Of a DNA stretch of 64,000 nt, positions 16,259 to 60,445 are shown piece by piece. The stretch covers positions 248,001 through 312,000 of the forward strand of contig NW_019028990.1 of assembly GCF_002105155.1 (NCBI RefSeq). Direction: 5' to 3'. How positions within the stretch are numbered: the first letter of the stretch is position 1; every line of letters begins with the position of its first letter. This DNA comes from Lobosporangium transversale. Its lineage: Eukaryota. Both the position numbers and the translations under genes were made by a program. Under the pieces are notes generated by a model, which ran no database searches, was not told the origin of the DNA, and was given only the letters and a program-made list of their open reading frames with translations.

Positions 16259-16564
16259 ATGGGAGCAGAAGAATATTTCTCAATCCCAATCTTTTTCATC
16301 ATCTTTCGAGAGACTGTCGAGGCAGCCATTATTGTCTCCGTCCTACTCTCGTTCTTGAATCAAGTCTTGACAGATGATCAAGCCGTGCGCAAACGTCTAA
16401 GTCGCCAGGTAAGAAAAAAAAAAAAAAAAAAAAAAAAAAGATAAATGTTACCTTAAAACTTGAGCTCGTTGTAAAACTATGACTATGACTATGACCCAGC
16501 GACTAATGTCTGTTAAACCTTCCTTCTTCTACTTCTTTTACTGCGAACTACAACTTCCATTACC

Positions 16565-16601
<37 letters not shown>

Positions 16602-16717
16602 TTTAGGTGTGGGCTGGTACTGCACTTGGGTTACTTATTTCGCTGGCCATGGGAGCAGGATTCATTGTTATCTGGTACGTATTTTATAGAATCATTGACT
16701 TCTTTAACTTGTCCTTT

Positions 16718-16751
<34 letters not shown>

Positions 16752-17672
16752 CACACGCTTATTTTATATATATGTTTTTTCTCTATCTCTTTTTCATCCA
16801 GGAATCTTTATGCTACCAACCTCTGGGCGATCAGCGAAGGAATCTGGGTTGGATGCTTCTCATTCGTGGCCGTGATAATGATTACAGTGATGGGAATTGC
16901 CATGCTTCGAACCAACCAAATGCAAGAGAAATGGAAGCTCAAGTTGAGGAAGGCTATGGATGATGAAAATGCAGAGGGTCTCGGGAATCAATCCCGTAAA
17001 TACGCTCTGTTCCTCTTACCTCTCATCACAGTCTTGCGTGAAGGTTTGGAGGCCGTTGTCTTCATCGGTGGTGTCACCTTCACAGAAGAACTTGAAGCGA
17101 TCCCCTTGGCCATCTTGGCAGGGTTGGGTCTAGGTTGGTTAGTAGGATTTGCCATCTATCGTGGAGGCAATCGAATGGGACTTCATCGATTCTTTGTAGG
17201 ATCTACTTGTTTGTTATTATTGGTCGCTGCAGGATTGGTCGTCAAGGGCATTGCAGCGTTCGAAGCAGATCGATGGAACAGATTAACAGGAGCACAATCG
17301 GATGATGATGGTACATTTGATCCTCGAGTCAATGTCTGGGCCCTCAAATGCTGTGATCCTAAAACACCCGATGCCGGATGGTGGGGCGTGGCCAATTCAT
17401 TGGTCGGTTGGAGCAACGTGGCCTCTTACTGGACCATTGGCTCTTATATCCTTTATTGGGGTCTGGTCTCTGCATGGTTGATTCGATCCAAGACAAAGAA
17501 GACCAAGGCTCTGACGGCTGAAAAGAGACCTCTTCTCGCAAACACTGCAGGTCACATCGATTCTTCTGCTACTGTTGTCGCTGCCTCTGCTCCTACTCAT
17601 GCTCCTGCTTCTACATCTACATCTGGAGGATATCGTCGTATTATGGATGATAACGAGATTACTGTCGCCTAA
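16259..17672 (+). CDS. FTR1: High-affinity iron permease; exons 16259-16408, 16607-16674, 16802-17672
   Basis: Two RExxE motifs (FRETVEAAII, LREGLEAVVF), multiple TM helices, and W....C.P plus GWSNVASY. Confidence 0.95.
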
Positions 17673-18282
17673 GAAAAAAAAAAAAAAAAAAAAAATTCCC
17701 ACGTTGGCCCTCCTCCTCCCCGTTTTTGCCTTCCCCTTCGCCTCCTTCATTTATTTCTTTTTAGTACACATAATTTTGTTTTTATTTTTTATTTTTTATT
17801 TTTGCACATAGTCTATTAGTTCGCATATTATACATATATTCATACACACCCAATTTGTTTTCACCTTTTTTTTTTTTTTTTTTATTGTACAGTTGTCTGG
17901 CAGCATGTTTTAAGCTGACAGGTAATAAAGCAAAAGCAAATAACCAACCAAATATACAAATACAAATACCAAATATGTTATATTTCTATACAGAAGTCAC
18001 CTTTTTTTTTTTTTTTTTTTTTTTGCAGTAATAGGTTTCCTTACAATTTCATATGAAAAAAAGGAATGAATGCTCATGTGACAAACCAAGATTATAAATT
18101 TACAAAGTGTCAAATGCCAATGAAAATAGGCTTACTTACTACCCTCCTTGTCTTGCGTCAACGTTTTTTTTCTCATCTCCTTATTTCCTTATTTTTTGAA
18201 TTATTTATTTCCTAAAAGTCTAAAAGTGGAGTTTATAAGAAAAAAAAAAGGAATAAGGTATATATCAATCATAGTCTATATT

Positions 18283-20523
18283 TTATACTTTTGTTGTTGC
18301 TGTAGTCATAATCTCAGATTTGGGCCCACAGCTACAAAAACTGTTCACAAGATCAACAATTCCAGTTCGCATCCTCTCTGCTTCTTCCTTCAGAACACGA
18401 TGCTGTCCCTTGTTGTGGCCTTCATCATTCAAGGCTGCCCGTCGAAGCCTTTCAAATTGCTTCGATACATCCACAGGTAAGGTCAAGAACAAGGTGCTTG
18501 GTGAGCTCATTAAAAAAAGTGTTCCAAATACTAGAGCACTCTCATGTTGTTGACTCGATATATCAACATTATCAGGCGCAGGGAAAGCGGATGAAACGAG
18601 CGAAAACAATTCTGTGGATCGGACAGATTGAATCAATTCGGTCGTATCTCGAAGTCGATGCGCTTGTTGTTGACTAACCCAGAATGCATACTCGCGTGGA
18701 ATGCCCTGTAAGACAACCGAAAACATCCGGTCCAATGTCTGTGGGTTCTCCATCTGAATACGACTCGGAAGGTCCTTACAGAAAGTCTGTGCTAATGAGG
18801 TCCAGCTCATCTTGTTGTCAGCTGTATGATTGGGTGTTTTGGTGGCGCTTGTAGAGGAGCAACTAGTAATATTCTTAAAAGTCTCTGAAGCAGTTGTTCC
18901 TTGTGCAGCAGAAGTGGTGATATTATAAGCATGCTCCGCTGACATTGTTGTAGTAGTAGAAGCAGCCAGAACAGTTTTTGAATCCACTGCTTGGGCAACA
19001 TTCACTGTGGCTGTGTTCGATTCTGTTACAGTCGTTGTCGTGCCTGATGTGAGATTGCTAGTAGAAGCCTCTCCTGTTATTGGAGCATTGGGTTCGATAG
19101 TTGCCTTGGGGATCTTGCATAATGAAATGGCTGGCTGGTTTGGGTTGGCTGACAATAAAAAGTAACCACGCGATGTCCCTGTCTCCACATCAATTGGAAA
19201 CAAGGACTCATAAAGTTTCTCTACAGAGACAAAGTAAGAAGGGTATTTGAATCTTGCAGTGTCCAGCACCAGTACCATCCCTGCCTTGGGCACATATCCT
19301 CCAATAGGGCTAATCGTTTAAAACATCAGCATAATGTTAGTCTTCTGAATTCTGGGCCATGGGAAATATAATATATACGCGACAATGCTAAAAAAAAAAA
19401 AAAAAAAAACATCTCCAAATGCAAGTTGGACCTTACCTAAAGTGTCCATCTCCTGTCTGACCAAGAGCCTTTCTTGAAAACGATACGACCATATGGATAT
19501 CATCACGACTGCAGACCATTTCTAGGTCTTTTTTAAATTGCTCCAATGATGTTTGGTTTGCTCGACGAACTTGGACATCACAGTGACATTTGCTTAAACA
19601 GGCAAATTGATTAAAAGTGATACCCTTGGCCTTGACTTGTTCTGTCGGTGCACAGCACTGCAATAACTCGTCACTATACCATCGCCAAGCGCCTTTCCAT
19701 TGTCTCTGTGGATCTACCTCCAATGAATTGAGAACCATGGCTAATGAGCTGGGCCCACAAAAGGCTGTCTCACTCTGTGTCGTGAAATTTCCCACAAGAG
19801 AAAAATAACCTTCGCCTAAAAAAAAAAAAAATAGATCATCAATTTATTAGTCCATGCATAGATGACAAAAAAAAAATTTTTTTTTTTTTTCCTTTAATGC
19901 AGATTACCCGTTAGAACAAATAAAAAATATTAGATGTAGATAGATCTATTACCATAACCTTCTTCAAGCATCTCACGAAACAATTGTTTGCCTTGAGGAC
20001 TTGTGAAACTGATTAGATGATCGGGTAGTTTGCGACGATAAAATGACTTTTTTAGATTCAAATTATCACAGGAGGGTTTTTTAACAGCTTGGGCGGAGAG
20101 TCCCGTAGGGTCATAGGAGAAAGGAAGTATTCTTGGTATATGGGTAGAGGAAGAAGGAGCAACACCAGAAGCAGCAGAAGCGGCGGCGGAGGAAGGGGTA
20201 GTGGTAGCAACAACAGGCGGTGGAGTAGAAGAACTAGTGGTTTTCGTTGAAGCAGAAGCATTAGAGCTCACAGAACAAGGAGATGTGGCCTTGGGTGCAG
20301 CTGTAGGTGTGCTTGTTGCTGGTTTCGAAGACTTTGCAGTGGTTGAAAAGAATGAAACAGATGGGGAAGAAATTGAAATCTTCTTTTGAGGAATTGAATT
20401 CAAACGGCAGGGACATGAATGAGGAGTGAAGATGAATCCTGCACCTTGACCTCTACGGCCAGTTGAGGCCAAGGTATTAATCAGACCATTCTTAGTGGCG
20501 AGCAAGGAACGATTGGACGCCAT
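18283..20523 (-). CDS. PCS: Phytochelatin synthase (papain-like Cys-His-Asp); exons 20523-19953, 19815-19437, 19309-18283
   Basis: FYRRKLP, QSETAFCGPSSLAMVLNSLEVDP, WRWY, GQTGDGHFSPIGGY (across an intron) and LVLDTARFKYP. Confidence 0.95.
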
Positions 20524-20734
20524 GTGTGTTTATTACAGTAAGGGAGATAAGGGAGGAATAGGCGTCTATATAATGGAGAGAGAGAGAGTATGTGAATGTA
20601 TATGAGAACAAGAAAAAATGAGTGTCAATGTAAAAAAAAAAAATAACGAAAAAGTGGGCGCAAGTGGAAAAGGAAATAAAAAGAATAAAAAAGCGTGACC
20701 TCGAAAATGGAAAAGATCGGGTCATTTCTGGAGA

Positions 20735-20819: not shown

Positions 20820-22217
20820 GTAAAAAAATTAATAAATCAGGCACTCCTCTCTTTTTCTCCCGCCTTGTCTCACTTAGTTTTAAACTTCTTTAAAAGGCTC
20901 ACACGCATTACTTCTTGCGCAGTATGCTAATTAAATAGTGCATACTGTGTGGATTTTTGCTTGCTGCTTGTTTTTCAACTCTTTATCCTAGAAGCAAGTA
21001 TACAGCCAGCTATTACTAGTGCATGGTCATGTCGTGCTTTATCACCGATAATGCTGTATTCTAATTACAAACGAGGTTGCACTAATTGAATGCAAATAGA
21101 GAGCATACAAGGCCCCAGTGGGTGTTTTTCAGAAGAGTAAGTGTTATCTATTTCATGGGCATGTAAAGATAGATTAAAATAAGCCTAATTTTCAACTACT
21201 TCTTCACCCGCAACCTTCCATCACTGCACATCCATTTTCAAGTGACGAGGAGAAATACGGTAATAAATAAAAACCTTTGGGTTCTGACTTTGATCCTTGA
21301 CCTATGTCACATACTATCCACGATCCCATTTACCGACAGAGCACATTTCTGTTTCGCCTTTAACCTTTTCAGAGGTTGACAAGCTCCATCATGATATCTT
21401 GGACGCGCTGGCGAAGACGGCATTTACAAGTCTCCGAGTCCCTGAACCTTTATCATCAAAATCTTCTCCGCCCTCATCGACTTTGATAGTCCAGGCTCCT
21501 AACTATTTTTCTTGATAATAGAGTCACCCATACCCTCTGCCTCGATTATCGCAAGTACCCCAAGACTGACAACGTCTTCTCGCTCCTCTAAGAAGCAGAA
21601 ATGTGTGTATTACCATAGGACCTTGACACAGTCTTACTCCCTCATTGATAAAAAGTGGTAAGTCCAAGCAAGTGTGCAGAAAAAGCATTGAGGTTTATAC
21701 CAGTTAATGATATGATTCAAAAATAGACATTTAGGTAAATGGAGAGAAGAAAGTAGATCTTGTTTCAAAAATTCCAACATACCCTCTTCTCACCCTACTA
21801 GATGCGAGTTTATTCTTTGTCCGTCATTCTCACCTTCTGGGATGGTCTGTTTGCAATTGTGGGCTCAAATATTTGGTGTCATTGCCAACAAGACAGCACT
21901 TCTAACGTAAGTAACCCATTGGGTTCTCCACAGGATTCTTCATCTCTATCCGTTTTTACAAAACTCTTTGATAATAGTATCACAAAATTCTGCCTTTTCT
22001 TGCATACAAGATCGCATAATGATCACAGCTTTATAAAGTTCTAAATGCCCTAGTAGAAGGGAGGACGGATTAAACCGCTTTATTCGTCTAGAAGGTAAGT
22101 GGATAATGATGGCTTCATTCATAAAGAATGAACCATTGTAAAAATTTCTCAAGGAACGGGTATAATGCTTTTTTTTTAAAAAAAGACAAAATTTCATCCA
22201 CTTGATTGGTATTCGAT

Positions 22218-24467
22218 TTAATTCTCCAGATTCGTACCGGCTGATCCTCCTGAATATGCAGCTTCGATGTCGATTTTTATGACACGCTGTCTTACATGTT
22301 TTGAGCATTTATATGGATTCTGGATGACCGTATTTCTGGTGGTAAGAAAGTTCTGAACTTTAAAATCGTCATATACGTCTCCTGGCACCACAAAATAGAG
22401 GAAAATAGTATCATCACTTCCCTTCGACTTTGATTGGTCTCCCTTCAAGCAGGGTCCAGTAATACAATCAATCGTCTGACTGGAGATCCCTAAAGGGAAA
22501 TCTAATATCACCACGTCGAAATAAGTGATAAGCATAGATTTCAAACAGTGGGCCTTTAACTATATCCTCTCCGCCTATGACAAGTCTCGCCAACACATCG
22601 ACCCAAGTGTTATCTTTTATTTTGTCCATAATCTGTGATTCGACCCAACGAGATGCCCACACCAGGTAGAAGTCGAGATGGTCAGAAGTGGGGACTCTAT
22701 GGAGTAAACGACTAAATTCACTCGCTTCTTTTCCTCGTGCAAAGAGGCTTAGAAGATCTGCTGGTTTCTCGAGTGTACTAATGGCATCATTGACGCGGAA
22801 TAACGCAGCTTCTTTAGCACGCTCAGTATTTTTTTGATTTTTGGATAGTACATCGGCTGGACACTGTAGAACCTGTCTTGGCACGCCCCCCAAGTAGTAA
22901 AAAAGCTCCTCCAAAAATGCTTCACTCACTACATGAAAAAACTTTACACTGGCTCTACATTCCTTAAGCTCATCCAGACTCCAGAGTGACATGTGATAGT
23001 AGCTATCTGGTGTATTTTCCTCGGTGAGTTCATCGTAATGCTCATAGAGAGTTCTTGGCGATACTGAAAATATCGTCCTGGCTTTACCTGGTTGAGGATT
23101 TTTACCACTATCAACTAAATACCACGTTTCACGTTGCTCAAGGAAATTTTCGAAATCTACTCTCTCCCCATAACATTGGCAAGTTGTTCCTCCGTAGGCA
23201 TAACATTTGGTATTCTGCTTCTCTTGGAAAATAATAATCGGTGGATTTTCCTCATCGTGTTCGGCAAGGAGGCGGATGGCAAAATAGACCAAAAAGGCCG
23301 ACTTCCCAATTCCAGGCGTTCCAGTGATAAAGAGTCGGTTCAAACGAGTTACTTCATGAGGGGTACTTAATTCGGATGTAATATGGTCATAAAGCTCTTT
23401 ATACTCATCTCTGATATAAAGATGCCTTGTTTTAGCAATAGGGAAGATACAACCCTCAGGGGCAGTCAATATTTTGGAATCCTTGATACCACCAGAATTT
23501 CGGAGCTCGCGAGCCACGCTAATAATGCTGTAGTAAATACTATCTACTGATGTCTTCCCCATGTACGAAAGCAGCTTGACCCTCTCTTTCGAGTTTAGAC
23601 GCGGGATGGCAGGGCTACCATTCACTATCCCTTTCGTTACAAGCCCTGCTTCTGTAATCGCATCCATAAGAGGATTTCTGCTTATACTTGGACGAGCTTT
23701 TTTAGAGGGTGACTCTGATAAAGGAGATAGAGTGATCAAAGTCAATATTTTTGATTTATTGCACTGCACATTACTCTAAATTGATCAATAACCAGGTTCT
23801 CAGCCAAAAGCACTCACCAGAATCTCCATCTTGTTTTCTTTTCTGACCTAAGTATCAAAAGCGAATAATGAGAAAGAACGTTGAGTTATCAAGACACAAA
23901 CCAAATGGCGACATTATGCACATGGCCGTTTAAGATACAAACCAAGCTTCATCAGCTGGAAATATCAACAATCAGTCCATCAAGAGCCAAAGATATACCT
24001 CGCTGTGGTGGCTTGACAAAAACATGGATAGTTTTCTCTGGAAGTTCAGAATTAAATATGTCCCCAAGCTTCCTTGACGCGGGTGCGAGAGCCTCTTTTG
24101 ACTCGATTTCTGACTCGACGACGGTCTTGTCTTCGTCAGGGATGGAGACCTTATAGAGGGTGAGATCTTTGGGCTTAATGCTTGGATCCACAGTAATATT
24201 GGGGTAGATTGCTTGCTTGAGCATCCCGACCGATTTATCGCAGAAAATCTCTACTGGGAACGACCTTGCTTCTCCCTCGACAACGCAGTTCAGCAGTAGC
24301 AGTGGGATGGCGCGCTTTTTTCGTTGTGGGTGCTGGTTTACTCTTTTTCGTTTATTGAGTGTGGAGGCATCCTCAGGCTTATTTGCAGTCATTTTTTTTT
24401 GTGCTTGGCTCTCTGTGGAATCATTTGCAGCCATGTTTTTTTGTGTTGAGCTCCTTGTGGTGGCCAT
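22218..24467 (-). pseudogene. Crinkler (CRN) gene: ubiquitin-like header, P-loop NTPase and remnant C-terminal domain, disrupted near 22470; exons 24467-23999, 23847-23818, 23714-22468
   Basis: Header LLNCVVEGE..SFPVEI..LTLYKV..TIHVFVKPP, Walker A ITGTPGIGKS, WYLVDS, W..DEL..C, GGVPR, GPLFE. The ORF stops at QSDD* while the family-typical LYFVVP..VYDDFK.Q tail continues in another frame (22218-22460). Confidence 0.8.
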
Positions 24468-24818
24468 TGAAAATTAAGATGAGTGTGGTTGAAATGCAGG
24501 GAGAATGATGGGTAAATAGGCAAAGGTATATTCTATACTCTTTCACACTCGTGGTCGCTGTATGAAAACAATAATGAAAGATGTGTAAGGCAAAAAAAAA
24601 GAAGGAAAGGAAAGGAAAGATAAATTTGTTCCTTTATTTCAAGGTTAGGCTTTGCGTGAGAAAATATTTTTTCAAATCAGCCACGTGCCATTTTCTGGGT
24701 CATTGTGACGTGACAATCTTTAGTGCGCAAAGAACTCATTTCTCAGTCTCGTCACCAGCCTGAGGACGAAGTTCATGTGCACATGCACAGGCTGGGACCA
24801 AACTTGACATTTTGGCCG

Positions 24819-25199
24819 GAGGTCTCTTTTTTTAAATTTGAAAAAGTTTCAAAGTCAAACACACCGCTAGGAAAGGCTCTTTTTTTTTCTTAGTCATTTA
24901 CACCATAGGGAATAGCTTTTTTTTATTTCTTTTAATTTTTCTATATTTGTTTAAAGGTGAGAATGATGAGAGGTAAATTTCGTAGTGATAATCAGATGAA
25001 TAAATGAGATTGTGAAGAAAAACAGTAGCATGCTTCACACGTAGGCCATTTTCCTCTGATCTGTAGGACTTTGCTTGAAAAAAAATGATTTAAAAAAAAA
25101 AAAGCTGTCCCCTGTGGTGAAAATGACTAAGAAAAAAAAGAGCTTTTCCTAGCGGTGTGTTTAACTTTGAAACTTTTTCAAATTTAAAAAAGAGACCTC
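24819..25199. mobile_element. Foldback/MITE-like element, about 380 bp with about 105-bp terminal inverted repeats
   Basis: GAGGTCTCTTTTTTTAAATTTGAAAAAGTTTCAAAGTCAAACACACCGCTAGGAAAGGCTC is mirrored by GAGCTTTTCCTAGCGGTGTGTTTAACTTTGAAACTTTTTCAAATTTAAAAAAGAGACCTC. No clear target-site duplication. Confidence 0.85.
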
Positions 25200-25609
25200 T
25201 TATAATTTAACTGTAACCTAGACAAATGTGCTTGGGTCTTAAGGATGCCATCTCAGTCATATTCGCTATCTATCTTTTTCCCTCGCGTCCCGGTCACATC
25301 CCTGAACGTGTTGCTCAAACTTTTTAAAGCGTACCCCTTCATCAATCATCTTTCCTGTACCTCAATGGGACCAGAGCACCAATGCCAAGAAAATTCGGCC
25401 GAAGATGACTGGTAGTACGGGGCATACTGGATAAGTAGAATTGGATGAGAAGAGTACTTAAATATTAAAATAATCAATCTTAAACCTTTTTTTTTTTTTT
25501 TACTTTATTTAAAAGCTTCACAGGAGAAAACTATATTCTCTCTTCCAAACATCGGCTCACACCAAAGTGCTGATTTTACTTGCTCTCAGTTGCTTTTATT
25601 GATTTTGGA

Positions 25610-25951
25610 TTAAGAAAAGTAGTTGGGGCACGAAGTTGGATCCCTTGAGGGGATACCGGACTTGCCAAAGGACATGCTGTCCACCCACTGCGCATTATAT
25701 TGGGTCTTACCCTTAGCAAGGGGAGTATAGCTTCCAGTGCAATCGGTGCTTGAGAATAGCTTAACATCTCCTACGTCTCTGTTGTAGATCTTGGCCGTTT
25801 GGGTGTTGATGAGGCAATAGCACGCTCTGTAGCCTGAGTATTCGTAAAAAGTGCGAGTCCAGCCCGCGCTGTTTGTGATATCAACATGGTAATCTCCTTG
25901 AGCAAGCGCACCAGCTGCACAGAGTGCCAACAACAAGAGTGATTTATGCAT
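25610..25951 (-). CDS. Small secreted cysteine protein, type A copy 1 (113 aa)
   Basis: Signal peptide MHKSLLLLALCAAGALA; mature region with CxC, LFSSTDCTG, WVxSxSFG, CPNYF; putative 5'UTR intron 26083-25971. Confidence 0.9.
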   Translation of the reverse strand: MHKSLLLLALCAAGALAQGDYHVDITNSAGWTRTFYEYSGYRACYCLINTQTAKIYNRDVGDVKLFSSTDCTGSYTPLAKGKTQYNAQWVDSMSFGKSGIPSRDPTSCPNYFS

Positions 25952-26725
25952 TTTTTTTTTAGATCGATATCTATTGCAGAGAAAAGCCAGGAAGAGCAAC
26001 AAGAGTTCAAAAAAAGATCAGAAGGCTTGAGGGCACAGATCCTGAAGATCAAATACTAAAAGAATAAGGGAACAGGGACTTACGGTGTGTATTGAGAAAG
26101 AGGATGATGAGCCATTTGTTGGTGGGAAAGGCCCTGTTTTTATATGAAGCATGATGTCCTGTGAAAATAAATCCTGGGACTCGATCGCTGAGATCGAACT
26201 CTAAAGTTTACACTAAATTGCCACTATCAGGGTGCTCTTTCCCAAACCTACCGAAATCAATCCTACTGTTGCATGTTACAGGGTCTACTTCAAGGTAAAA
26301 GAGAGAACAGAAAACAGGTTCTTTGCTTTCTAATTAATTGCTTTTTTGTTTTGAGTTCGGAAAACGGCGTTTGCAAATAAACTAAGCGAGCGCCCCATAT
26401 TAACTCAAAGGGAGCGCCGTGTGCGCACAAACTTAAAGAAAGCGCCGTTGAACTCAAAGAGTGCGCGCTTTTTGATTTAGTGTGCATGGAATCATTCCAT
26501 TCTTCGGATACAAATATCTCCGTTCTCCTCAACACAAACCTTTCATCACCGATCTCTTTTCTTATTCTCTGTATGCCTTCATTCTTTTTTTTTTTTTTTT
26601 TTTTTTTTTAAACATACTTCTTTGTCTCTGAATTAGCTAATGCCCTGAACTTCTGACTTGCCTGATGCCTAACATCCTAAATCTCTCTTGTTTCTTCCTT
26701 TATGGCTTCTCTAGAGTGACCAGCA

Positions 26726-27067
26726 ATGTATAAATCACTCGTCTTGTTGTTAGCAGTTTGCTCGAACGTTGTCCTCGGCTACCACTACGTTACGATCGAG
26801 AACAACGCTGCCAAATATTATTCGACCGCTGCACTGCAAGATCTGGAGAGAAAGTGCATCTGTGTCAAGAATACTCAAACCGCTGCAATCAGAGGAGTCA
26901 ATGGAGGAACCATCAGGCTGTTCAAATCTAACGACTGCACAGGAACCTATCAAACTCTAGGAAGCAATAGCTACCTAAAGAACACATACTGGGTGAACAG
27001 CTACTCATTCGGTGCATCGGGTATGGCATCATCAGGCCCAAATGGATGCCCAAACTACTTTGCCTAG
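26726..27067 (+). CDS. Small secreted cysteine protein, type B copy 1 (113 aa)
   Basis: Signal peptide MYKSLVLLLAVCSNVVLG; same CxCxxNTQTA, LF..xDCTG, WVNSYSFG, CPNYF skeleton as type A; putative 5'UTR intron 26571-26714. Confidence 0.9.
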   Translation: MYKSLVLLLAVCSNVVLGYHYVTIENNAAKYYSTAALQDLERKCICVKNTQTAAIRGVNGGTIRLFKSNDCTGTYQTLGSNSYLKNTYWVNSYSFGASGMASSGPNGCPNYFA

Positions 27068-28391
27068 GAGCACTATTAGCTGTGGTGTGGGTGAAGAAAC
27101 ACAAATAAATGAATGACTGAAAGATGTTTTGCTTGCTTGCCAATGTACAAGAATGTGTTATGTGTCAAATAAATGTAGATGTCGCTCCTCCGTAACAACG
27201 GAGGATGGAGCAAGAATAGTGAAGCCTTAGCTTTAAAAGCGATCTGGCTATAGTAGTAAGCAACCTCAATCTGCGTTGGAAGAGCTGGCTGTATAGTGTG
27301 ATACAAGATGTAAGCTTATGATTAGGATCACTCTCAATGGAAATGCAGTACCAGGAAACAGGAATATGCATCGATGATAAACTCTCCACAGGAAAAGGGC
27401 TCCACCTATTTTATAACAGAAACTGCAATAGCTATAAGGTGGAACAGAGGACTAAGGAATACTGCACCCGGGTGTAACGGAATTCTGACGGGGGGACGGG
27501 GGTGTTCGCGGGGGGTCAAAATTCAATTTTGACGTGGGGGTGTATTTCTCCTTTGTTCTTTTGGCGAAGCTGCAAATCCTAGAGACAATGTTTGGGAGAG
27601 GTAACGTGTGAAGCTTCCAAATAAACTTTTTTTTCTTTAAGTCTTGGATTGTTCCTGTATCATGAGAGTTGAGAAACATGACTATTAGCGAACTGAAACA
27701 GGGCCTGTGCTCGATATTTTGATACGCGTTCGTTTTTTTCGCATCTTTTTTTTTTCTTTTTTTTTCTGTTACTTCTAAACTCTTTTTTTGTTTAGTCCAG
27801 CTTACCATAACTTTATCCTCTACCTTACACTTTTACATATTTGCCTAGGTCACCTTTTCATTCCTTTCAATTTTACGCTTTTACGCCTTTACTCAGGGCA
27901 CCACCACGAAGCGCCAGCTCAGACCAAAGAATCTTCTGATAAGAAATCGAGCTCCAAAGGAGAACCATAGCCCTACTTTTCAACTCCCATTTCAAATACC
28001 CACAACCTTCTCCCTCTCCACTTTTGCCCTTTGCTTACAGAGAAATGGTTGCAAAAGATAGTCCTTTATAAATATGCGTGCAACGCTGTGTAAGGTGCCG
28101 TTGAGTAGGCGTCGCTTAGCCGTTCTTCGTGCCATTGCTTGTAATGTTGTATTTATATACTGTATATTTGAATAAATGCATTCTATGTCCTTCCAAAAAT
28201 GGTCGAACCTCAATGATGAGTCCCTTCAAATGTCGTTCATGACCTGCATGATATAACCAGCCTTCAATGATAGGGTTCTTCAACCATCGATACATGTGTA
28301 TGATTAAATTGATTGGACACTTAAAGGCATAGAATATTTCTATGCTGTGAATGCTGAAAAACATGGTTTCTAGGAAATTGAAACTTCATAC

Positions 28392-28426
<35 letters not shown>

Positions 28427-29009
28427 CAGCAGTGTTGATATATGATATAATTGATAGGCTTCTTCTAAACTGTTTTTGAGCCCAGTCCGTCTCTGCGCTC
28501 CAAAAAAAAAAAAAAAAAAAAAAAAAAAAGTGAGAAACACGAACCAGTGGCGCAAAGGCCAAGATCTTGGTACTTCTTTGTGCTTAATCACTGATCTATC
28601 CCTTGGACTGTAAAACGGGCAAATTTGCTCATTTGGCTTTCACCAATTCATGGGCAGGCAGATCCAGTTCTCCGTGCTTTTTACTAACAGATACCAGCCG
28701 TCTATTCCATACCAAAAAAGAAAAAAAGAAAAAAAATTCAGTAAAAAATCAGTGAAGAAAGCCAGCAAAAACCGTATGCCTAGTTATATCATCATGATGT
28801 GCTATGCCCACCATCCATTTGCCTTCAGTCCTTTGCGCACCTAGCAACCTTCATCACTTCTTTCCTCCTTCCCCCAGCCTAAAGGAAAACAAAGCGCCGT
28901 TTCGGCTCCTTTTTCGCCACAGGTGTGAATCCCCCATGCTGATCTAGAAATGGTTGTCATTTTGACTTTAAAAAACCGATTGGTTGCAGGCTCAAGTCTT
29001 TGTCTCTAG

Positions 29010-29480
29010 CTTGCTCTGCCCCTGTGTTTTCCCAGACGAAAGCCCTTGAATCTATCAATCCGGAAAAAGTAGAGGACGTTACGGTTGACAATACATGAGA
29101 CCAAAGCCAAGGATCATTTACCGAATTTGGCTTCGTACTGTCCTGGCGAAAAGTACTTGAGTTTGATCTATGTCCACCCAATAGTTGTTGAAAAGGATCG
29201 AGATGACCGGAATAGTGACAAAATCTGGGATAAGGAGTCAGATTCAGAACTCGATTGCAGCCCATTGATGTAACTCCTTATGGCTATTGATGGAAGCAAT
29301 ATGCCGGGTTGTCTTCCTGAAGAAGTGGTTGCCTTGCCCGATAGCGTGAAGGATTACAGGCGAGTATATGAGCGACCAGGCTCGTCTAATAGAGCAAACA
29401 ATATTAGAGAAGCAGCAGTAGTCATAGCAGGAAGATATGTCAATAACCAATATGTTGCAGCTAATGTACAAACCACATTT
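29010..29480 (+). pseudogene. Degraded gene fragment, copy 1 (unknown family)
   Basis: About 29180-29480 aligns with about 30915-31210; reading frames are broken. Confidence 0.5.
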
Positions 29481-29510
29481 AAACCTTGGTTTCAACCTTG
29501 GACATTTTGT

Positions 29511-29629
29511 TTTTATTTTTTATTTTTATTTTTATTTTTATTTTTATTTTTATTTTTATTTTTATTTTTATTTTTAATTTTAATTTTAATTTTAATTTTA
29601 ATTTTAATTTTAATTTTATTTTTATTTTT
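29511..29629 (+). repeat. Compound microsatellite (TTTTTA)n/(TTTTAA)n
   Basis: Directly visible; absent from the paralogous position near 31230. Confidence 0.9.
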
Positions 29630-29786
29630 CGCTTTATCTACTTGGTATAGCTTTAAGTAAAAGATCATATGTGTTACTGCAGGATACAAGCGTTGCGTCC
29701 CTCAAACATCAGCTCATACTCAAAGGGGACACATCAAAGTGCTGATTTTGCTTGTCCTCAGTTGTTTTTTTTTTATTGATTTTTGG

Positions 29787-30128
29787 TTAAATAAAGTAGT
29801 TGGGGCACGAAGTTGGATTCCTTGAGGGGATGCCAGCCTTGCCAAAGGACATGCTGTTCACCCAGTACGCATTATATTGGGGCTTGCCCAGACCAAGGGT
29901 ACTATAACTTCCAGTGCAATCAGTGGTCGAGAATAACTTAACATTTCCTCCCTCTCTGTTGTAGATCGTGGCCGTTTGTGTTTTCTTGAGGCAATAGCAC
30001 GGTCTGTGGCCAAAGGAGTCAAATAAAGTCTCCATTCTGCCTTCGTTATCTATAATATCAACATTGTAATCTCCCTGAGCAAGCGCACCAGCTGCACAGA
30101 GTGCCAACAACAGGAGTGATTTATGCAT
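29787..30128 (-). CDS. Small secreted cysteine protein, type A copy 2 (113 aa; no B partner)
   Basis: Identical signal peptide and Cys skeleton to A1 and A3; putative 5'UTR intron 30261-30145. Confidence 0.9.
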   Translation of the reverse strand: MHKSLLLLALCAAGALAQGDYNVDIIDNEGRMETLFDSFGHRPCYCLKKTQTATIYNREGGNVKLFSTTDCTGSYSTLGLGKPQYNAYWVNSMSFGKAGIPSRNPTSCPNYFI

Positions 30129-30789
30129 TTTTGTTGATCGATATCTATTGTAGAGAAAAGCCAGGAAGAGCAACAGGAGTTCAAAAAAAGGTCAGAAGAC
30201 TTGAGGGCACAGATCCTGAAGGTTAAATACTTAGAAGAGTGTGGAGGGAATGGGAACTTACATTATGTATTGAGGAAGAGAATGGTAAGCCATTTGTTAG
30301 TGGGAAAGATTTTATATGAGTCCAGGGACTCGATTGTTGAGATCGAACTCTAAAGTTTACACTAAATTAAGTGAGCGCCGCACATAAACTCAAAGGGAGC
30401 GCGCCGTGAACAGGCCCACTTGATTGCCCAAACTATTTGCCTAAAAGTACTATTGGATGAAGGAATACAAATAAATATATAAGATAAATATATATGTATT
30501 TTGTTTGTCCAAGAGATGTATAAATTAGCGTTAGGGATTCTGAATTTACTAATATGGTAACAGGGAACATGGGTTTTCACCTGTGAAATTTCCAAATAGA
30601 GTAAAAAATAAAATTAAATATTCTCCGATGTCATTCTTATCAATTTAGATCAAACTGTTCTCGTTCTTATATTAGTGCTTCAGATCGCAAGAATGTCAAC
30701 AACGCCATTTTCTTCAGAGAGTATAGACAGCTCGGGTATCAAACACACAACTCTACATTATTACATTAGGCTGTGTTCAGTTTTATCCA

Positions 30790-31210
30790 GAATGAAGACA
30801 AAGGATTCTACGAAATCTTCCAGGGGCTCAAATGATATGCAATTTGATGGAAAGCTCTGTGGGTGGCACGGACCCTTGGATCTGGTTCAATTCTTCCACA
30901 ATAAAAAGTTCAAGCAAGAGTTGTTGAAAAGGATCGAGACGACTGGAACAGTGACAAAATTTGGGATAGGGAGTCAGATTCAAACTCGATTGCAACCCAT
31001 TGATGTAACTCCTTATGGCTATTGATGGAAGCAATATGCCGGGTTATCTTCCTGAAGAAGTGGTTGACTTGCTCGATGATGTGAAAGATTACAAGCGAGT
31101 ATATGAGCAACGAGACTCGCCTGATAGGGTAGACAAGAAACTAAAGAAGCAACAATAGTGAGAGTAGGAAAGCTGCTAACAAATGATATGTTGCAGCAAA
31201 ATATACAAAG
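30790..31210 (+). pseudogene. Degraded gene fragment, copy 2
   Basis: Paralogue of the 29.2-29.5 kb fragment (LKRIETTGTVTKFGIGSQIQ...; MAIDGSNMPG in a shifted frame) with stops. Confidence 0.5.
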
Positions 31211-31430
31211 GATATCAAAATCTTTGGGCGTTTTTTTTTTTTTACTTTATTTACTTAATATGACTCTAAGTAAAAGATCGTATGTGTTGCTGCAGGATAT
31301 GAATGCTGCATCGCTCCAGTATCACACTTTTTTTTTCATACGTGAGAATTGTACTGTACATTAGTTCACACTCATAAGTGGCCCACACCAAAGTGCTGCC
31401 CGCTTTCAGTTGTTTTTATTGATTTTTGAA

Positions 31431-31772
31431 TTAACCAAAGTAGTTAGGGCATGAAGTTGGGTCCCTTGAGGAAATGCCAGACTTGCCAAAGGACATGCTG
31501 TACACCCACTGTGCACTATATTGGGTCTTGCCCTGAGCAAGGGGAGTATAGCTTCCAGTGCAATCAGTGCTTGAGAATAGCTTAACATCTCCTCCGTCCC
31601 TGTTGTAGATCTTGGCCGTTTGTGTATTCTTGAGGCATTTGCACACTCTGAAGCCAGTGTAGTCGTAGAAAGTGATTGTCCTGCCTGCGTTGTTTGTGAC
31701 ATCAACATGGTAATCTCCCTGAGCAAGTGCACCAGCTGCACAGAGTGCCAACAACAAGAGTGATTTATGCAT
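31431..31772 (-). CDS. Small secreted cysteine protein, type A copy 3 (113 aa)
   Basis: Differs from A1 at 16 of 113 residues by my count; putative 5'UTR intron 31892-31789. Confidence 0.9.
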   Translation of the reverse strand: MHKSLLLLALCAAGALAQGDYHVDVTNNAGRTITFYDYTGFRVCKCLKNTQTAKIYNRDGGDVKLFSSTDCTGSYTPLAQGKTQYSAQWVYSMSFGKSGISSRDPTSCPNYFG

Positions 31773-32401
31773 TTTTGTTGATCGATATCTATTGCAGGAA
31801 GAAACAAGAGTTCAAAAAAGGTCAGAAGACTTGAGGGCGCAGAGTCTCTGAAGATCAAATACTATGAGGGTGTGAGGGAGATAGGAACTTACATTGTGTA
31901 TTGAGGAAGAGAATGGTGAGCCACTTGTTAATGGGAAAGCCTGTTTTTTATATGAAGCATGGTGTTCTTTCTGCGAAGAGAATTCCGCGGTCCGGCTGCT
32001 GAGGATCGAACTTTAAAGTTTACACTAAATTGCCCACGATGAGGGTCCCCACATGGTCTGCTACAAGATAAAAGAGATAACAGAAAACAGGTTGTTTGTT
32101 TTCCTAATTGCTTTTCTAATTTGAGTTTAGTTCTCAAGTTGTTCCAACTGTTCTGTTCAAACAAAAGAAAGAGAGCGGCGTCTATAGAGCGCCGCACATA
32201 AACTCAAATGAAGTGCACACAAAACCTGAAGAGTGTGCTGTTGAATACCAAGGGAGCGCCGTTTTTTTTGATTTTAAGTTCTCGTGGCCCTTGAGTTTGT
32301 GTGCATTGGATCATTCCATTTTTCGGTACAAATATCCCCCTCTCTCCTCAACACAAACCTTTCATCACCGATCTCTTCTCTTATTCTCTGTATGCCTTCA
32401 T

Positions 32402-32432
<31 letters not shown>

Positions 32433-32541
32433 CATCTTTGTCCCTGAATTAGCTAATACCCTGAACTTCTGACTTGCCTGATGCCTAACATCCTAAATCT
32501 CTCTTGTTTCTTCCTTTATGGCTTCTCTAGAGTGACCAGCA

Positions 32542-32883
32542 ATGTATAAATCACTCGTCTTGTTGTTAGCAGTTTGCTCGAACGTTGTCCTCGGCTACCA
32601 CTACGTTACGATCGAGAACAACGCTGCCAAATATTATTCGACCGCTGCACTGCAAGATCTGGAGAGAAAGTGCATCTGTGTCAAGAATACTCAAACCGCT
32701 GCAATCAGAGGAGTCAATGGAGGAACCATCAGGCTGTTCAAATCTAACGACTGCACAGGAACCTATCAAACTCTAGGAAGCAATAGCTACCTAAAGAACA
32801 CATACTGGGTGAACAGCTACTCATTCGGTGCATCGGGTATGGCATCATCAGGCCCAAATGGATGCCCAAACTACTTTGCCTAG
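32542..32883 (+). CDS. Small secreted cysteine protein, type B copy 2 (identical protein to B1)
   Basis: Translation identical to 26726-27067; putative 5'UTR intron 32390-32530. Confidence 0.9.
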   Translation: MYKSLVLLLAVCSNVVLGYHYVTIENNAAKYYSTAALQDLERKCICVKNTQTAAIRGVNGGTIRLFKSNDCTGTYQTLGSNSYLKNTYWVNSYSFGASGMASSGPNGCPNYFA

Positions 32884-34170
32884 GAGCACTATTAGCTGTG
32901 GTGTGGGTGAAGAAACACAAATAAATGAATGACTGAAAGATGTTTTGCTTGCTTGCCAATGTACAAGAATGTGTTATGTGTCAAATAAATGTAGATGTCG
33001 CTCCTCCGTAACAACGGAGGATGGAGCAAGAATAGTGAAGCCTTAGCTTTAAAAGCGATCTGGCTATAGTAGTAAGCAACCTCAATCTGCGTTGGAAGAG
33101 CTGGCTGTATAGTGTGATACAAGATGTAAGCTTATGATTAGGATCACTCTCAATGGAAATGCAGTACCAGGAAACAGGAATATGCATCGACGATAAGCTC
33201 TCCACAGGAAAAGGGCTCTACCTATTTCATAGCAGGAACTGCAATAAGGACTATAAGGTGAAGTAGAGACTATTCGATATGACGGGATGTGAAGGGATAT
33301 GAAGGAGCAGAGGATCAGGCATCAAGACACAAAGTAAGTCTATGAAATACAAATGGATCGACTAATAGTTCTGTAGTCCGAATCTTAAAGAGAAAATTTG
33401 CGTCGGAAAGGGTCGCTAGTACAGATAATGAGCGAAGGAAATCCTTCATCATCTTTGCTGCACAATCTGAATACAGATAAGGCCACTGGGTTGGTTGTTT
33501 TTAATTGTGGTTATATAATGATTTTTTTTTTTTTTTTTTTTTTTTTTAGTGAATGAAAATACTTTCTCTATAGGCATCTTTTAGATTCTCTTTCTCGAGT
33601 GCACCCTGTCGCCATTAAAAAGTAAAAGAGAAAGATAACGATGTGATGTGAGCTTTTGGACAGAGTGTACCTGTTATTTAGAGCCGGATATCAAAGATCA
33701 GATCTCACTTTTTTTTTCCTACTGAGGGCACAGCGGTAATTGGTTGCACTTAAACACCACCAATTTTATTAGAAATGTATAAAAATAAAAGCACCAAGTC
33801 GTAAAGTATAGAGAAATAGCGGAGTGAAATAACAACGCCACCAATTTTATTGAAAATAGCATAGCTTTTTGGTCAACAACGACTTTTGCAGCGTCACCTG
33901 ACATGCAAGTGCACATATATAAAGAGTTGATTTGTCAAGAACAAGTGGGAGATGAGAGCATGGACAGGGCAGATCAAATAAGAATCTAGTACATGTACAA
34001 AATTTGCACGGGAACGATCAAATGCCTTTGTGTGAACATTAGGTCAAAAAGCATCAACAGTCCAACTCACACTGAAAAAAACCCTGAAGTATCTCAGAAG
34101 AGTCGTGCTATGTCTTCAGATGACTTTGTTATTTCAGACGAAGAGTGTATATCCACAAACTTCCTAAAAG

Positions 34171-51074: not shown

Positions 51075-51826
51075 GGTCAATCCTCTGTGCTGTTTGACAT
51101 AAACTGTCCTTTGTCTATTGTCTGTTGTCTCTGTAGTTTTCTTTTTTTTTTTTTTTTTTTTTTTTTTTTCTTAAAAAAAAGTAAAAGGAATAGAAAGATG
51201 TGAATAAGGGAACTTTTTGATCCTTGTAATGAATGGAAAGAAACTATGAAAAAAAAAAAAAAAAGTGAGTCTCACAATTCTAATGGCAGAATAAACGGGA
51301 TGTAGCAGTTTTTGATTGGATGAATGAGAGGATGTGGTGTGGTCCAACTTGATCGGAATCAACAGATAAGAGGCAAGGCAAAAGAAAAGTAAAAGAAAAG
51401 TAAAGAGGAATGAAGTTGGGTCGGATGAATCCAAATGTTTATATTAAGCTTGTGCATAATCACTTGCTCTATTTTAATCCAAGGTCGATCATATCGGATT
51501 TCACATGCCATCGAAAAATGAATTATCGAATTATCTTTTTCATTTCGGAGTGTTGCAAAAGAAACATAACCGTTGGGGGGCTCTGATCAAAGATGACGGA
51601 GCAATTATCCCTCTCTCCTAGGCAAATACATCATGTATCCATCTGGAACATCATCTCGGACCATGAAAACATTTATACACACACATGTACATACATATAC
51701 ATCTATATAAAGTTACAAAGCATCAAGCATCGCTGTCAAGGATTGAATTTGTATATTTTTTATTTTCTCTACTAGTAACGCAAAATACATGTAATCCATG
51801 CTGTGCCATGCTTTGCCCTGCCAGCG

Positions 51827-54807
51827 TTATTTCCCAATTAAGTCGTACCGCAAGTCCAGCCTTGCCAATGCCTTGTTTGTCTTGAGCACATCTGAAAGTG
51901 CCAGAGCTCCTTCAGGTCCAATTGGGTTGCTTCTCAAGTTCAAACTTGTCAAAGTTGTGTTTGTCTTGAGCGCCTCCGAGAGTGCCAGAGCTCCTTCTTT
52001 CCCAATTGAGTTACTTCCCAAATTCAAATTTGTCAAAGTCACGTTTGTCTTGAGTGCCTCTGAAAGTGCCAGGGCTCCTTCATCCCCAACTCTGTTGCCC
52101 CAAAAGATCAAACTTGTCAAAGTCGTGTTTGCCTTGAGTGCCTCTGAAAGTGCCAGAGCCCCTTCTTTCCTAATATAGTTGCACGACAAGTCCAATCTTG
52201 CCAGAGTCGTGTTTGTCTTGAGTGCCTCTGAAAGAGCCAAAGCTCCTTCATCCCCAATACTATTGCTGCTCAAGTCCAAGCTTGTCAATGCCTTGTTTAC
52301 CTTCAGTGCCTCTGACAGTGCCAGAGCCTCTTCCTTCTTAACTGAGTTGGCTTCCAGGTTCAAATCTATCAAAGCCGTGTTTACCTTGAGTGCCTCTGAG
52401 AGCGCCACCGATCCTTCTTTCCCAATCGAGTCGTATCGCAAGTCCAAACTTGTCAAAGTCTTATTTATTTTGAGCGCCTCTGAAAGTGCCAGGGCTCCTT
52501 CATCCCCAATTCTGTTGCCCCAAAAGATCAAACTTGTCAAAGTCGTGTTTGCCTTGAGTGCCTCTGAAAGTACCAGAGCTCCTTCTTTCCTAATATAGTT
52601 GTACGACAAGTCCAATCTTGCCAGAGTCGTGTTTGTCTTGAGTGCCTCTGAAAGAGCCAAAGCTCCTTCATTCCCAATTGAATTGGTTCCCAAGTCCAAC
52701 CTTGTCAATGCCTTGTTTGCCTTAAGTGCTTCTGAGAGTTCCAGAGCTTCTTCATCTCCAATTGAATTTCTGGTTAAGTTCAACCTTGTCAAAACCGTGT
52801 TTACCTTGAGTGCCGCTGAGAGTGCCAGAACCCCTTCTTTCCCAATGTTGTTGTGGTACAAGCACAACCTTGTCAAAGTCGTGTTTGTCTTTAATCCCTC
52901 TGAAAGTGCTAGAGCTCTCTCTTTACCAATCGATCTGTGCATCAAGTACAAACTAGTCAAGGGCATGTCGGTCTTGAGTGCATTTACAAGCTCTCGGAAA
53001 TCGCTGTCCCCGATCGTTGAAGGATTCATCTCGAACGATAGCTCGTGAAGGTGTGGCGGTTTCCTGCTTGATAGATTGGTAAGCTTGATCAGATCTGGAG
53101 ATAGTACTATACAAATCGATTTCATTTTGCGTAGTTCTATAATACGAACAAGCTGTTCATATCGTGTAGACATTGAAAGTAGTTTCCAGATAACACTCTC
53201 TTGAGGCTGCCCAAGATGAAGTCGAAGAACCGATACATTCGACACTTTTAGAGCTTTCTCTAACGCTTTAAGATCTGTCCGAGTCCAGTCCCAGGATAAT
53301 GTGATATCCATCTCGTACACATGTTTTGCATTGGTCAGAGCATTGTAGAATTTTACTGCTGTGGTTCTGGATCTCAATGTGATAGTCACTTTGCCAAGGT
53401 GCGACTCATACTTGCCAAAATGCCACTCCTCGTCTTGGTTCATCTCCACTACATTTTCAAACACCTCCTGTTCTCTCTCGTTATATGTCAAGCGGTAGTG
53501 GTCGATGCAAACCCATCTGACATGGCCTGTTTCTGTCGTAATCCTGTACAAGTTGCCAAGTTGCCAGTCTTCATCCTTGGTTTGAAGGAGTTTGCTCAGT
53601 TGGCGAAGATCTGCTCCTTCAAGTGCCTCAAAGTCATCGATTGTGTTGATGTTGCTCAGAGCTGGATTCGCTTTAGAGAGCTGCTCCATATACTTGATTG
53701 AATAATCAATGCCGGCATCCAGTAGATTTGGGACTGATGTCAGAGAAGTACCTGAAGCTGCTCCTATCCCCAACTTCAACCACTGTAAAAGGATAACTAT
53801 ATATTTTCCATACTTTTGAAAGAACTCTGTGCTGTTCCGGATCTCATATCCTTCATGTCTGGCAAGGTGGATTTGGTCGTGCCAATTCTTATCTGTCTTT
53901 GCAGTGTTATCCCCATGTTCGCATAAGAAATGAAGGCGCACCTTGTTCCTCAAGACATTCATTGGGTCCCACTTGGTACGATCGGCAGGTAAAATGATAA
54001 ACAGTCGAGGAACTGGATACTCGTGTGGCTCAAACTTCTGGACAAGGATAGCTTCAGCTTTCTTTTGCAGGATGGCAAGTCTGCCGAGTGCTTGCCGTTG
54101 CATTTCAAGCATTCTTTCGTCCTTCTCCTTGGCCTCGAATTGCAGTTGAAGCATCTTCTTCTGCATTTCAACCATCATGTCGTCCTTCTCCTTAACCTCC
54201 AACTGCAGTTCAAGCATTCTATCGTCCTTCTTCTTAGACTCTAATTGCAGCTTAATCCCCTCATTACTGGCCTCCATCAGCAATTTCTTTGTCTCTTCAA
54301 AGTGAGAGTTGAAATTCTCGTTATTAGAAGGTTGGACAAAGTTTGATAATGACAAAAGAAGGTCATGAAAAACCAAGTTTTTCGACTCTCCCAATGTCGG
54401 CAAATGGACGATGGTGTTGCTACTGCCGCAGTTGCAGCACTGTGGTGGTTCTGTAATGATGTCCAGGATCTTGTCAGGATAGAATGCAATACGCGGAGGC
54501 TCGATTCTAAAGAGACAAAATAAAAAAAAGTCGTGTCAAATTGGGATTCCCTCATTTTTCTATCCATGAGCAATCAACAAGGCACCAATGATAAAATAAT
54601 ATACCTGTTGCCATCAGCATCCGAAAGGAATGGGATGGGATGCTCATTCAGCTTGAAGCGCAGTGCATCCGGAAACACATCTCGAATGTCTTGCAAAAGT
54701 ACGAAGCACGGCGGGCAGTCATTGGTTGCCTTGGTGGAAGCAGTTTTAACACAAACTTCTTCAACGATGTTGTCCTTTCGGAATCGTTGGTATTGAAGCT
54801 CTGCCAT
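51827..54807 (-). CDS. LRR receptor-like protein copy 1: small N-terminal domain, coiled coil, central domain and 14 RI-like 28-aa LRRs; intron 54604-54507
   Basis: Exon 1 (MAELQYQRF...DADGNR) splices in frame to IEPPRIAFYP and the 858-aa ORF; repeats follow LxxLxLxxNxIGxEGALALSEALKxNxx. Confidence 0.9.
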
Positions 54808-54999
54808 CTCGGTGATGATTCGAAGGATGAGGAAGGAATGTTGACAAGATGCAAAGACCCTTCATTCCTCTTCTCTGAGCAACAGATGCTGTAATACAGT
54901 CGAGTCGACCTTCAGCTTCGCCACTTAAGGTCATATTGGTGTGCTCTACTGACTATAGTTTCGTCCACGAGTGCTGTTTATTTGCATCCGTCGGCTGAA

Positions 55000-57014: not shown

Positions 57015-57411
57015 CAGCGTTTTTAATTGTTTTATCCATTTTAAAAAAACATTTATCCATTTTCAATTTGCATTGCTCCGATGGGAAATAAGCTTTATCC
57101 ATTTAAGCTAATAAAATTATCCTATAAGTTATCCGAATGTGTCTGGAATATTATCCATTTTTTCAAACATAATAACCGAACCGACTGTAACAAATATCCA
57201 AACACCATGTCCTTTTCCATGTCCCACAAAAGTCATGGTTAATTCCGCATGACCACTTGGACAAAATTTGCAAACACTTGGATAAATTTCTCAGCCCTTT
57301 TCGGCCAACTTTTTAACTTACCTTTGGATAAATTTTTTTATTCATTGGAACAATTTTAAAAAAAAACCGATAAAGTTTATTTTAAAATGGATAAAACAAT
57401 TAAAAACGCTG
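57015..57411. mobile_element. MITE with TA flanks (Tc1/mariner-like), about 400 bp
   Basis: TA|CAGCGTTTTTAATTGTTTTATCCATTTTAAAA ... TTTTAAAATGGATAAAACAATTAAAAACGCTG|TA, with internal repeated TTATCCA/TGGATAA motifs. Confidence 0.88.
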
Positions 57412-60354: not shown

Positions 60355-60445
60355 TTAGATGGTAATTCGAATGATGAGTATGACGAGATGAGAGGTTTCT
60401 TCATTTCTCTTTTTAAATAAGGAGTGCAGTACAGTCAGCCTATTT

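Follow-up and report, generated by a model that had tools for sequence, protein, structure and literature searches.

Secreted proteins with a crystallin-like fold are described as widespread in fungi in the available parts of PMC10462633 and PMC13525658. Amongst proteins of comparable fold, Sp-AMP3, a homologue of the plant protein MiAMP1, binds beta-1,3-glucan and is antifungal according to the accessible portion of 10.1101/127746, and WmKT is presented in the available text of PMC4695807 as a secreted fungal antifungal that inhibits beta-glucan synthesis. A separate point of comparison is provided by cooperating effector pairs encoded by divergent neighbouring genes, such as AvrLm10A/AvrLm10B. 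Features recalling both are found in a 64,000 nt stretch of the Lobosporangium transversale genome (assembly GCF_002105155.1, contig NW_019028990.1, positions 248,001 to 312,000; hereafter the window, with all coordinates counted from its first base), which harbours a cluster of five genes for small four-cysteine proteins between 25610 and 32883. These appear to be co-regulated, stand-alone members of a large family with a predicted crystallin fold, and may serve as antimicrobials that bind cell-wall glycans.

The five open reading frames (ORFs) each encode 113 amino acids and fall into two subfamilies. A1 (25610-25951), A2 (29787-30128) and A3 (31431-31772) all lie on the minus strand, and B1 (26726-27067) and B2 (32542-32883) on the plus strand. 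Identity amongst the A copies is 72-86 % (72-73 % for A2 against A1 and A3) and between A and B 43-47 %, with B1 and B2 identical at 342 of 342 bases. Sequence comparison places cysteines at positions 44, 46, 71 and 108 in the mature part of every protein, and all five are likely to be secreted, with signal peptides judged from the sequence together with low model confidence at residues 1-18. Amongst the A copies 36 positions vary, and this variation is concentrated at residues 18-43 (16 of 26 positions), which is also the least conserved part family-wide. The original prediction had described these five ORFs with their motifs and two subtypes, two divergent A/B pairs with about 770 bp between start codons, and an unpaired A2; all of this was borne out, with measured gaps of 774 bp (A1/B1) and 769 bp (A3/B2), and with the isolation of A2 confirmed from ORF positions and self-comparison. 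The self-comparison (blastn) also reveals that A1, the shared promoter and B1 constitute one unit (25554-27454), and A3, the shared promoter and B2 a second (31380-33272), which are 85 % identical over 1,974 columns. The reported repetition of the pair about 5.8 kb apart is therefore real (B1 to B2, 5,816 bp), but as both pairs lie inside a single duplicated block of about 1.9 kb, the repeated head-to-head layout represents one event and counts once. A2 resides in a partial copy, which retains the upstream DNA common to A genes until approximately 30402, plus the downstream flank of A3.

A profile built from the five proteins retrieved 129 sequence clusters at E ≤ 0.01. Amongst the matches listed (120 of 129), all 97 organism-named clusters derive from Mortierellaceae, spanning Mortierella, Podila, Linnemannia, Actinomortierella, Gryganskiella, Dissophora, Haplosporangium, Entomortierella and Benniella; a wider profile adds members from Umbelopsis isabellina, and an exhaustive search of 50 % representatives returned 79 matches. 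No relative was confirmed in prokaryote genomes (0 of 26 pattern matches) or viral contigs (0 of 20). No Pfam family scored above cut-off, either with the window proteins or with two alignments of the family, in agreement with the earlier statement that no named family could be recognised, and sequence searches of the PDB returned only unrelated weak matches. Judged from sequence, this is a large unnamed Mortierellaceae/Umbelopsis family, of which A and B are distant subfamilies. Phylogenetic trees resolve many old subfamilies, placing A beside Mortierella sp. AM989 and NVP41 proteins and B beside those from Podila, Linnemannia and Gryganskiella, the B-clade proteins of other species being 47-57 % identical to B. 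A single A+B clade is rejected by the approximately unbiased (AU) test (p-AU 4.7e-5, 35 selected rows), upholding the view of A and B as distant paralogues; the two nevertheless have in common all 10 invariant columns and the same leader type. Family members are mostly basic, with a median isoelectric point of 8.5 and values above 8 in 75 of 110.

Some individual matches merit separate mention. Certain long matches amongst the 50 % representatives, including one joined to a cyclophilin and one two-copy protein, look like mis-joined gene models. P0121 carries two family domains in 211 amino acids, which may be a mis-joined tandem pair or a real two-domain form, with a bearing on dimerisation. 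A UniRef label of Alt a 1 allergen on P0013 looks automatic: Alt a 1 is absent from the Pfam rows listed and from 50 structural rows, and the crystallin fold fits in its place. The literature search found no paper on the family or on the upstream motif described below, although the supplements of secretome-wide structure surveys may list such proteins; 10.1101/2024.01.04.574150 contains none of the terms crystallin, Mucoromycota and Mortierell-, and the sole match in PMC13039781 was to 'crystalline'.

These genes share a short upstream motif, RCGCCGY. The DNA upstream of the five genes contains 8 RCGCCG sites in 2,443 bp, compared with a mean of 0.2 after shuffling (0 of 300 shuffles reach 8), whereas the corresponding DNA of 17 other window genes, with starts estimated from long ORFs, has just 1 site in 14,997 bp. 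Three sites lie between A1 and B1 (26364-26448) and three between A3 and B2 (32175-32262), as candidate shared transcription factor sites, and two further candidates lie upstream of the unpaired A2 (30375-30407, plus strand). Beyond the window, 9 upstream regions from 8 independent loci recovered by a metagenome scan (numbered with the prefix L) contain 25 sites against 3.8 in shuffles (0 of 300), whilst the downstream DNA of the same loci has 6 against 3.4 (32 of 300). Left out of the 9-region count were L003 and L012, which have no upstream DNA, and L005 and L010, which have no clear in-frame start; checked apart from that count, the upstream DNA of L010 contains 2 sites and the 232 bp of L005 none. 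In a de novo search that excluded the window, ACGCCG ranked first of 1,951 6-mers, with 19 occurrences against 2.0 expected, in 7 of 9 regions. Of 27 sites, 26 have a pyrimidine directly after the motif, at a position that the search did not include; any consensus longer than RCGCCGY is weak. Most sites are found some 160-490 bp away from the start codon. At E ≤ 1e-3 no two of the nine regions align, and similarity to the window's motif blocks is limited to those of L006 and L010, which align with the 26364-26448 block at 74-83 %. The motif precedes genes whether they stand singly, in tandem or divergently, and is therefore a property of the family, not of the pair; its recurrence makes it likely that family members are switched on together through RCGCCGY.

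Three further occurrences of the motif were noted. A lone RCGCCGY at 28894-28900, between B1 and A2, adjoins no family gene and is possibly a promoter relic. The only other window gene with RCGCCG within 900 bp upstream is FTR1, in the region 16464-20529 beside a phytochelatin synthase gene. At L006, positions 570-727 comprise a tandem array of repeats of about 30 bp, each a motif-bearing element, upstream of a single family gene.

Transcription was assessed from one RNA run (X1), which is stored as contigs and so shows presence but cannot rank expression; its contigs were aligned to 21000-30300 only, and the A3/B2 unit was read indirectly, through contigs aligned on the A1/B1 unit. None of the runs found to contain these genes is catalogued as RNA; X1 was taken as such because a nearby gene displays two GT..AG joints and several intergenic bins are uncovered. 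Contigs with 0 differences correspond to A1 (25532-25928), B (26715-27047) and A2 (29651-30105), and a contig aligned on A1 agrees with A3 at all 15 of the listed places and shares its 44 substitutions. One spliced run hence contains each of the four distinct sequences, at contig depths across genes of 4.6 to 266.5, which are not usable for ranking expression. Each subfamily also appears to possess an intron in its 5′ untranslated region, as read from the sequence: for B1 at 26571-26714 (plus strand, GTATGC ... CTAG), where the RNA contig begins at 26715, the first base past AG, and for A1 at 25971-26083 (minus strand, GTAAGT ... ATAG), with counterparts in A2 and A3. Shared regulation of the paired genes is likely because a motif cluster sits between the genes of each pair. 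The proposed co-expression of the pair is compatible with the joint presence of all four sequences and made likelier by that cluster, whilst the fixed arrangement from which it had been argued was not found at the other loci examined, as set out below.

AlphaFold2 models of B and A3, the latter also standing for its paralogue A1, have predicted local distance difference test (pLDDT) scores of 87.5 and 89.7, respectively, with eight strands in each. Both are predicted to form a single betagamma-crystallin domain of two Greek keys. In a search of 48,161 PDB representatives, both models matched betagamma-crystallin domains best, with nearly all of the 27 highest rows for B being of crystallin type, and MiAMP1 (1C01) matched B at Z 7.3 and a root-mean-square deviation (rmsd) of 2.2, and A3 at Z 7.6 and rmsd 2.1, with 70 of 76 residues aligned in each case. 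In the Atlas, clusters of MiAMP1, Crystall and Inhibitor_I36 were recovered at template modelling (TM) scores of about 0.6. The cysteine spacing CxC-x24-C corresponds to C21/C23/C49 of MiAMP1, as numbered in the accessible part of 10.1101/127746, and on this likeness the modelled domains likely contain the disulfides C46-C71 and C44-C108. The Ca2+-binding motif N/D-N/D-x-x-S/T-S is found in 1 of 120 family proteins, which sets the family apart from the Ca2+-binding microbial betagamma-crystallins.

Taken together, these observations are best explained by a local cluster of a large family of crystallin-fold proteins, acting as co-regulated, stand-alone antimicrobials that bind cell-wall glycans and share RCGCCGY, a reading to which a probability of about 0.5 is assigned. 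Its architectural part is held with considerable confidence, and antimicrobial function, suggested by the models, is evenly poised. Under this scheme, an A/B pair with one motif cluster would have been duplicated as a 1.9 kb unit; a partial copy would have given rise to A2, keeping two motif sites and no B; and recent gene conversion would have rendered B1 and B2 identical. One transcription factor would drive the family, and the head-to-head layout would allow one set of sites to serve two genes whose proteins need not touch. The conserved core (R42, Q51, F66, N86, W89, N91, S92 and S94) may bind a wall polysaccharide such as beta-glucan, as Sp-AMP3 does, and the variable residues 18-43, forming the N-terminal strand pair, may tune the range of targets. 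The cluster would thus be one of birth and death amongst stand-alone secreted proteins under one regulator, with binding of competitors' cell-wall glycans as their most likely task.

Several observations weigh against this interpretation. On the structural side, MiAMP1 is on a par with lens crystallins, Geodin and a fucosidase domain from Fusarium, none of them exceeding Z 8.0, and values of 8.0 or under may, as the tool itself warns, reflect just a common arrangement; WmKT, SKLP and AFP1 match at Z 4.0-4.9 only, and Foldseek returned no match at E ≤ 0.001. Neither Pfam nor PDB sequence searches matched MiAMP1, the MiAMP1 family PF09117 being absent for the window proteins, amongst the listed families (25 of 26) for 111 members, and for 52 members at E ≤ 0.1; moreover, there are four conserved cysteines as opposed to the six of MiAMP1. 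At the level of genes, dN/dS (the ratio of non-synonymous to synonymous substitution) amongst the A copies is 0.27-0.74, such that positive selection on A is not supported. The motif is missing from L009 and L011 (2 of 9 regions) and from the short L005 region. The metagenome scan yielded 12 true loci out of 13, from few metagenomes and perhaps few species; the thirteenth, L013, was a false bacterial match and was dropped. One heterotypic pair of neighbours is found in two lineages, a recurrence not predicted by a purely random cluster, and the literature search found no known activity of any family member. The antimicrobial role fits the MiAMP1-like fold of the models, although a common fold alone says nothing firm about function.

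The most serious alternative retains the shared regulation and the fold and disputes only the function, viewing these as secreted lectin-like, protease inhibitor-like, wall or spore-coat, or plant-directed effector proteins. It is a real, if lesser, possibility. The fold serves many purposes: a fucosidase accessory domain, IPSE, Protein S, Neurospora APP and the StcE X409 glycan-binding domain are structural matches that score equally well or better, and the Inhibitor_I36 clusters in the Atlas point the same way. The available part of PMC13525658 describes crystallin-like effectors as widespread and as induced at an early stage of host infection, and a Crinkler-type gene lies 1.1 kb from this cluster. 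Conversely, proteins that are small and mostly basic, with MiAMP1-like disulfide spacing and many diverged paralogues per genome, would fit an arsenal for antagonism, and the Ca2+ motif of structural microbial crystallins is all but lacking (the 1 of 120 noted above).

Whether the proteins act in pairs is best judged from the arrangement of family genes elsewhere. More than one family gene occurs at three of the metagenomic loci, giving four oriented adjacencies: one convergent and one divergent at L001, one tandem at L002 and one divergent at L008. Seven further neighbour pairs were read, without orientation, from consecutive or near-consecutive locus tags or from a shared short contig. The combination of A clade and B clade is found in 0 of the 4 oriented adjacencies and 0 of the 7 others (P0182 lies outside the trees), and the locus most similar to B (L010, 60 %) lacks any family gene within roughly 1 kb upstream. 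The head-to-head A+B pairing originally described is therefore not seen at the examined loci or amongst locus-tag neighbours, where family genes take every orientation. At L008, however, the divergent genes, 1,452 bp apart, comprise a member of the 'GDYHMDV' clade, which is sister to A (93/78 support), and a member of the 'WQF/WHI' clade, and the same two clades occupy consecutive tags in Linnemannia schmuckeri (BG015_009087/8). Some heterotypic pairs must accordingly be old, which fits either inherited microsynteny around a shared promoter or a partner-swapping cooperation like that of AvrLm10A/Six5.

This recurrence lends some weight to the proposal that an A-type protein needs a head-to-head partner, swappable between lineages, with which it forms a heterodimer. 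Another combination is shared between L. zychae, where the tags are consecutive, and a single contig of L. elongata; divergent genes make up two of the four oriented adjacencies at other loci, and the window's own divergent gaps of 774 and 769 bp, each enclosing a central motif cluster, suggest a shared promoter of the kind expected of cooperating effector pairs. Lens crystallins, moreover, pair two such domains. Partner replacement is reported for AvrLm10A/Six5 in the available text of PMC10346447. The proposal is nonetheless unlikely, given the lack of an A+B combination amongst the eleven neighbour pairs examined elsewhere, the isolated L010, and the transcription of A2 without a neighbour. 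L006 and L007 likewise have the motif but no partner within 1.0-1.2 kb upstream, the two pairs of the window amount to one duplication, and none of five named B-clade proteins (P0002, P0014, P0038, P0042 and P0055) has a consecutive tag among the matches listed, a weak point as that list is clustered. An obligate two-component system is thus unsupported. Bolder still, and decidedly unlikely, is the idea of an ancient inducible defence regulon in Mortierellaceae, in which an RCGCCGY factor would control dozens of MiAMP1-like mix-and-match heterodimers, with an A-type protein head-to-head with a swappable partner; were this so, pairing different paralogues would widen the range of rivals killed.

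The apparent invariance of B has a separate origin. The identity of B1 and B2 extends over a tract of 732 bp (26643-27374 and 32459-33190), comprising 83 bp upstream, the coding sequence and 307 bp downstream, with 0 differences in 732 bases overall and 0 in the 390 non-coding bases. Outside it the two units diverge by 11 % in the A genes, 18 % in the spacer core and 13 % directly past the tract; the flanks differ by 4-18 %, tapering to 4 % directly upstream. At the rate seen between A1 and A3, about 18 synonymous differences would be expected in B, and 0 are observed. Because the non-coding DNA is identical too, selection at the protein level cannot account for the constancy of B, and recent gene conversion is its likely source, in place of selection or a fixed partner role. 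The 'invariant B' of the original prediction is thereby explained as a homogenised tract, and the locus would cleanly illustrate how gene conversion can mimic an invariant partner. It is improbable that the identity is an artefact of assembly or polishing: mis-placed short reads could, during polishing, create such a sharp and perfect block, but one RNA contig with 0 differences explains the entire depth in both B bins, where computed and observed values agree at 166.2 and 119.1, meaning that a second, different B is absent or silent. In addition, the diverged A3 produced its own RNA contig, and the flanks are distinct at both ends, with the upstream taper described above. Least credible of all, and highly improbable, is that A kills whilst an invariant B protects the producer, for which nothing beyond the divergent layout and the variable A/constant B pattern speaks, and which fits poorly with a B constancy that reaches into non-coding DNA, with B-clade proteins of other species just 47-57 % identical to B, with the predicted fold, all 10 invariant columns and leader type that both partners have in common, and with an A2 that has no B.

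A further stretch is duplicated downstream of A2 (29179-29686) and A3 (30915-31299), containing a short plus-strand frame with the same in-frame stop in each copy and no Pfam match above cut-off; it is possibly a gene relic. The wider window also holds ordinary eukaryotic genes. The Crinkler-type gene mentioned above (22468-24467, minus strand; PF20147, E 7e-18) includes a P-loop ORF, and so many nearly identical RNA contigs match it that it may belong to a large family of multiple copies. Between it and A1 lies an element of approximately 380 bp (24819-25199) resembling a miniature inverted-repeat transposable element, with 60 nt terminal inverted repeats that are 97 % complementary. More distantly, 51743-60378 (minus strand) contains two tandem-duplicated genes about 5.5 kb apart and approximately 79 % identical, which harbour arrays of an 84 bp (28 amino acid) LRR_6 repeat and are candidates for immune receptor-like proteins.

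Mortierellaceae are common soil and root fungi, and the literature search found no protein antimicrobial described from them. This family comprises over 120 sequence clusters, is predicted to adopt a MiAMP1-like fold and has many paralogues in each genome; it would be a source of candidate antifungal proteins. RCGCCGY, in turn, provides a handle on a likely regulon in an early-diverging fungus, both for genome-wide scanning and for finding its transcription factor.

Amongst the closest of the described systems is MiAMP1 (beta-barrelin; 1C01, PF09117), with its homologue Sp-AMP3. The similarity includes the single double-Greek-key domain, predicted here and aligned over 70 of 76 residues, the CxC followed by a cysteine about 25 residues on, and a small, mostly basic protein with an N-terminal leader. 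Unlike MiAMP1, the present proteins are fungal and multigene, with just 13-16 % identity to it and no PF09117 match; MiAMP1 has six cysteines in three disulfides (C11-C65, C21-C76 and C23-C49), whereas here there are four, whose two bonds may correspond by spacing, and the last cysteine lies in a C-terminal extension past the aligned part. To the killer toxin-like proteins WmKT (Williopsis mrakii, 1WKT), Streptomyces SKLP (1F53) and AFP1 (1GH5), the likeness is one of fold class, with weak structural scores (the rmsd being 3.0-4.0 at the Z values given above) and no sequence match. Ecp4, Ecp7, CfCE44 and CfCE72 of Cladosporium fulvum, the 'Crystallin' family in the available part of PMC10462633, are likewise small, secreted, cysteine-containing fungal proteins of this predicted fold that lack a Ca2+ motif and occur as paralogues. 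Ecp4 and Ecp7 have six cysteines with MiAMP1 spacing and belong to an ascomycete plant pathogen; the present family, from Mortierellaceae and Umbelopsis, has four cysteines and a conserved upstream motif. With AvrLm10A/AvrLm10B, Six5/Avr2 and Six8/PSE, the cluster has in common divergent small secreted-protein neighbours, repeated pairs and a likely shared promoter. For several of those pairs, binding and cooperation have been demonstrated, and according to the accessible text of PMC10346447 the genes are as a rule paired in the different species, whereas in the present family the two partners are clearly paralogous, orientation and partner both vary, and some genes stand alone. The family is apparently an undescribed four-cysteine variant of the crystallin-like class of secreted antimicrobials and effectors, equipped with a family-wide candidate cis-element.

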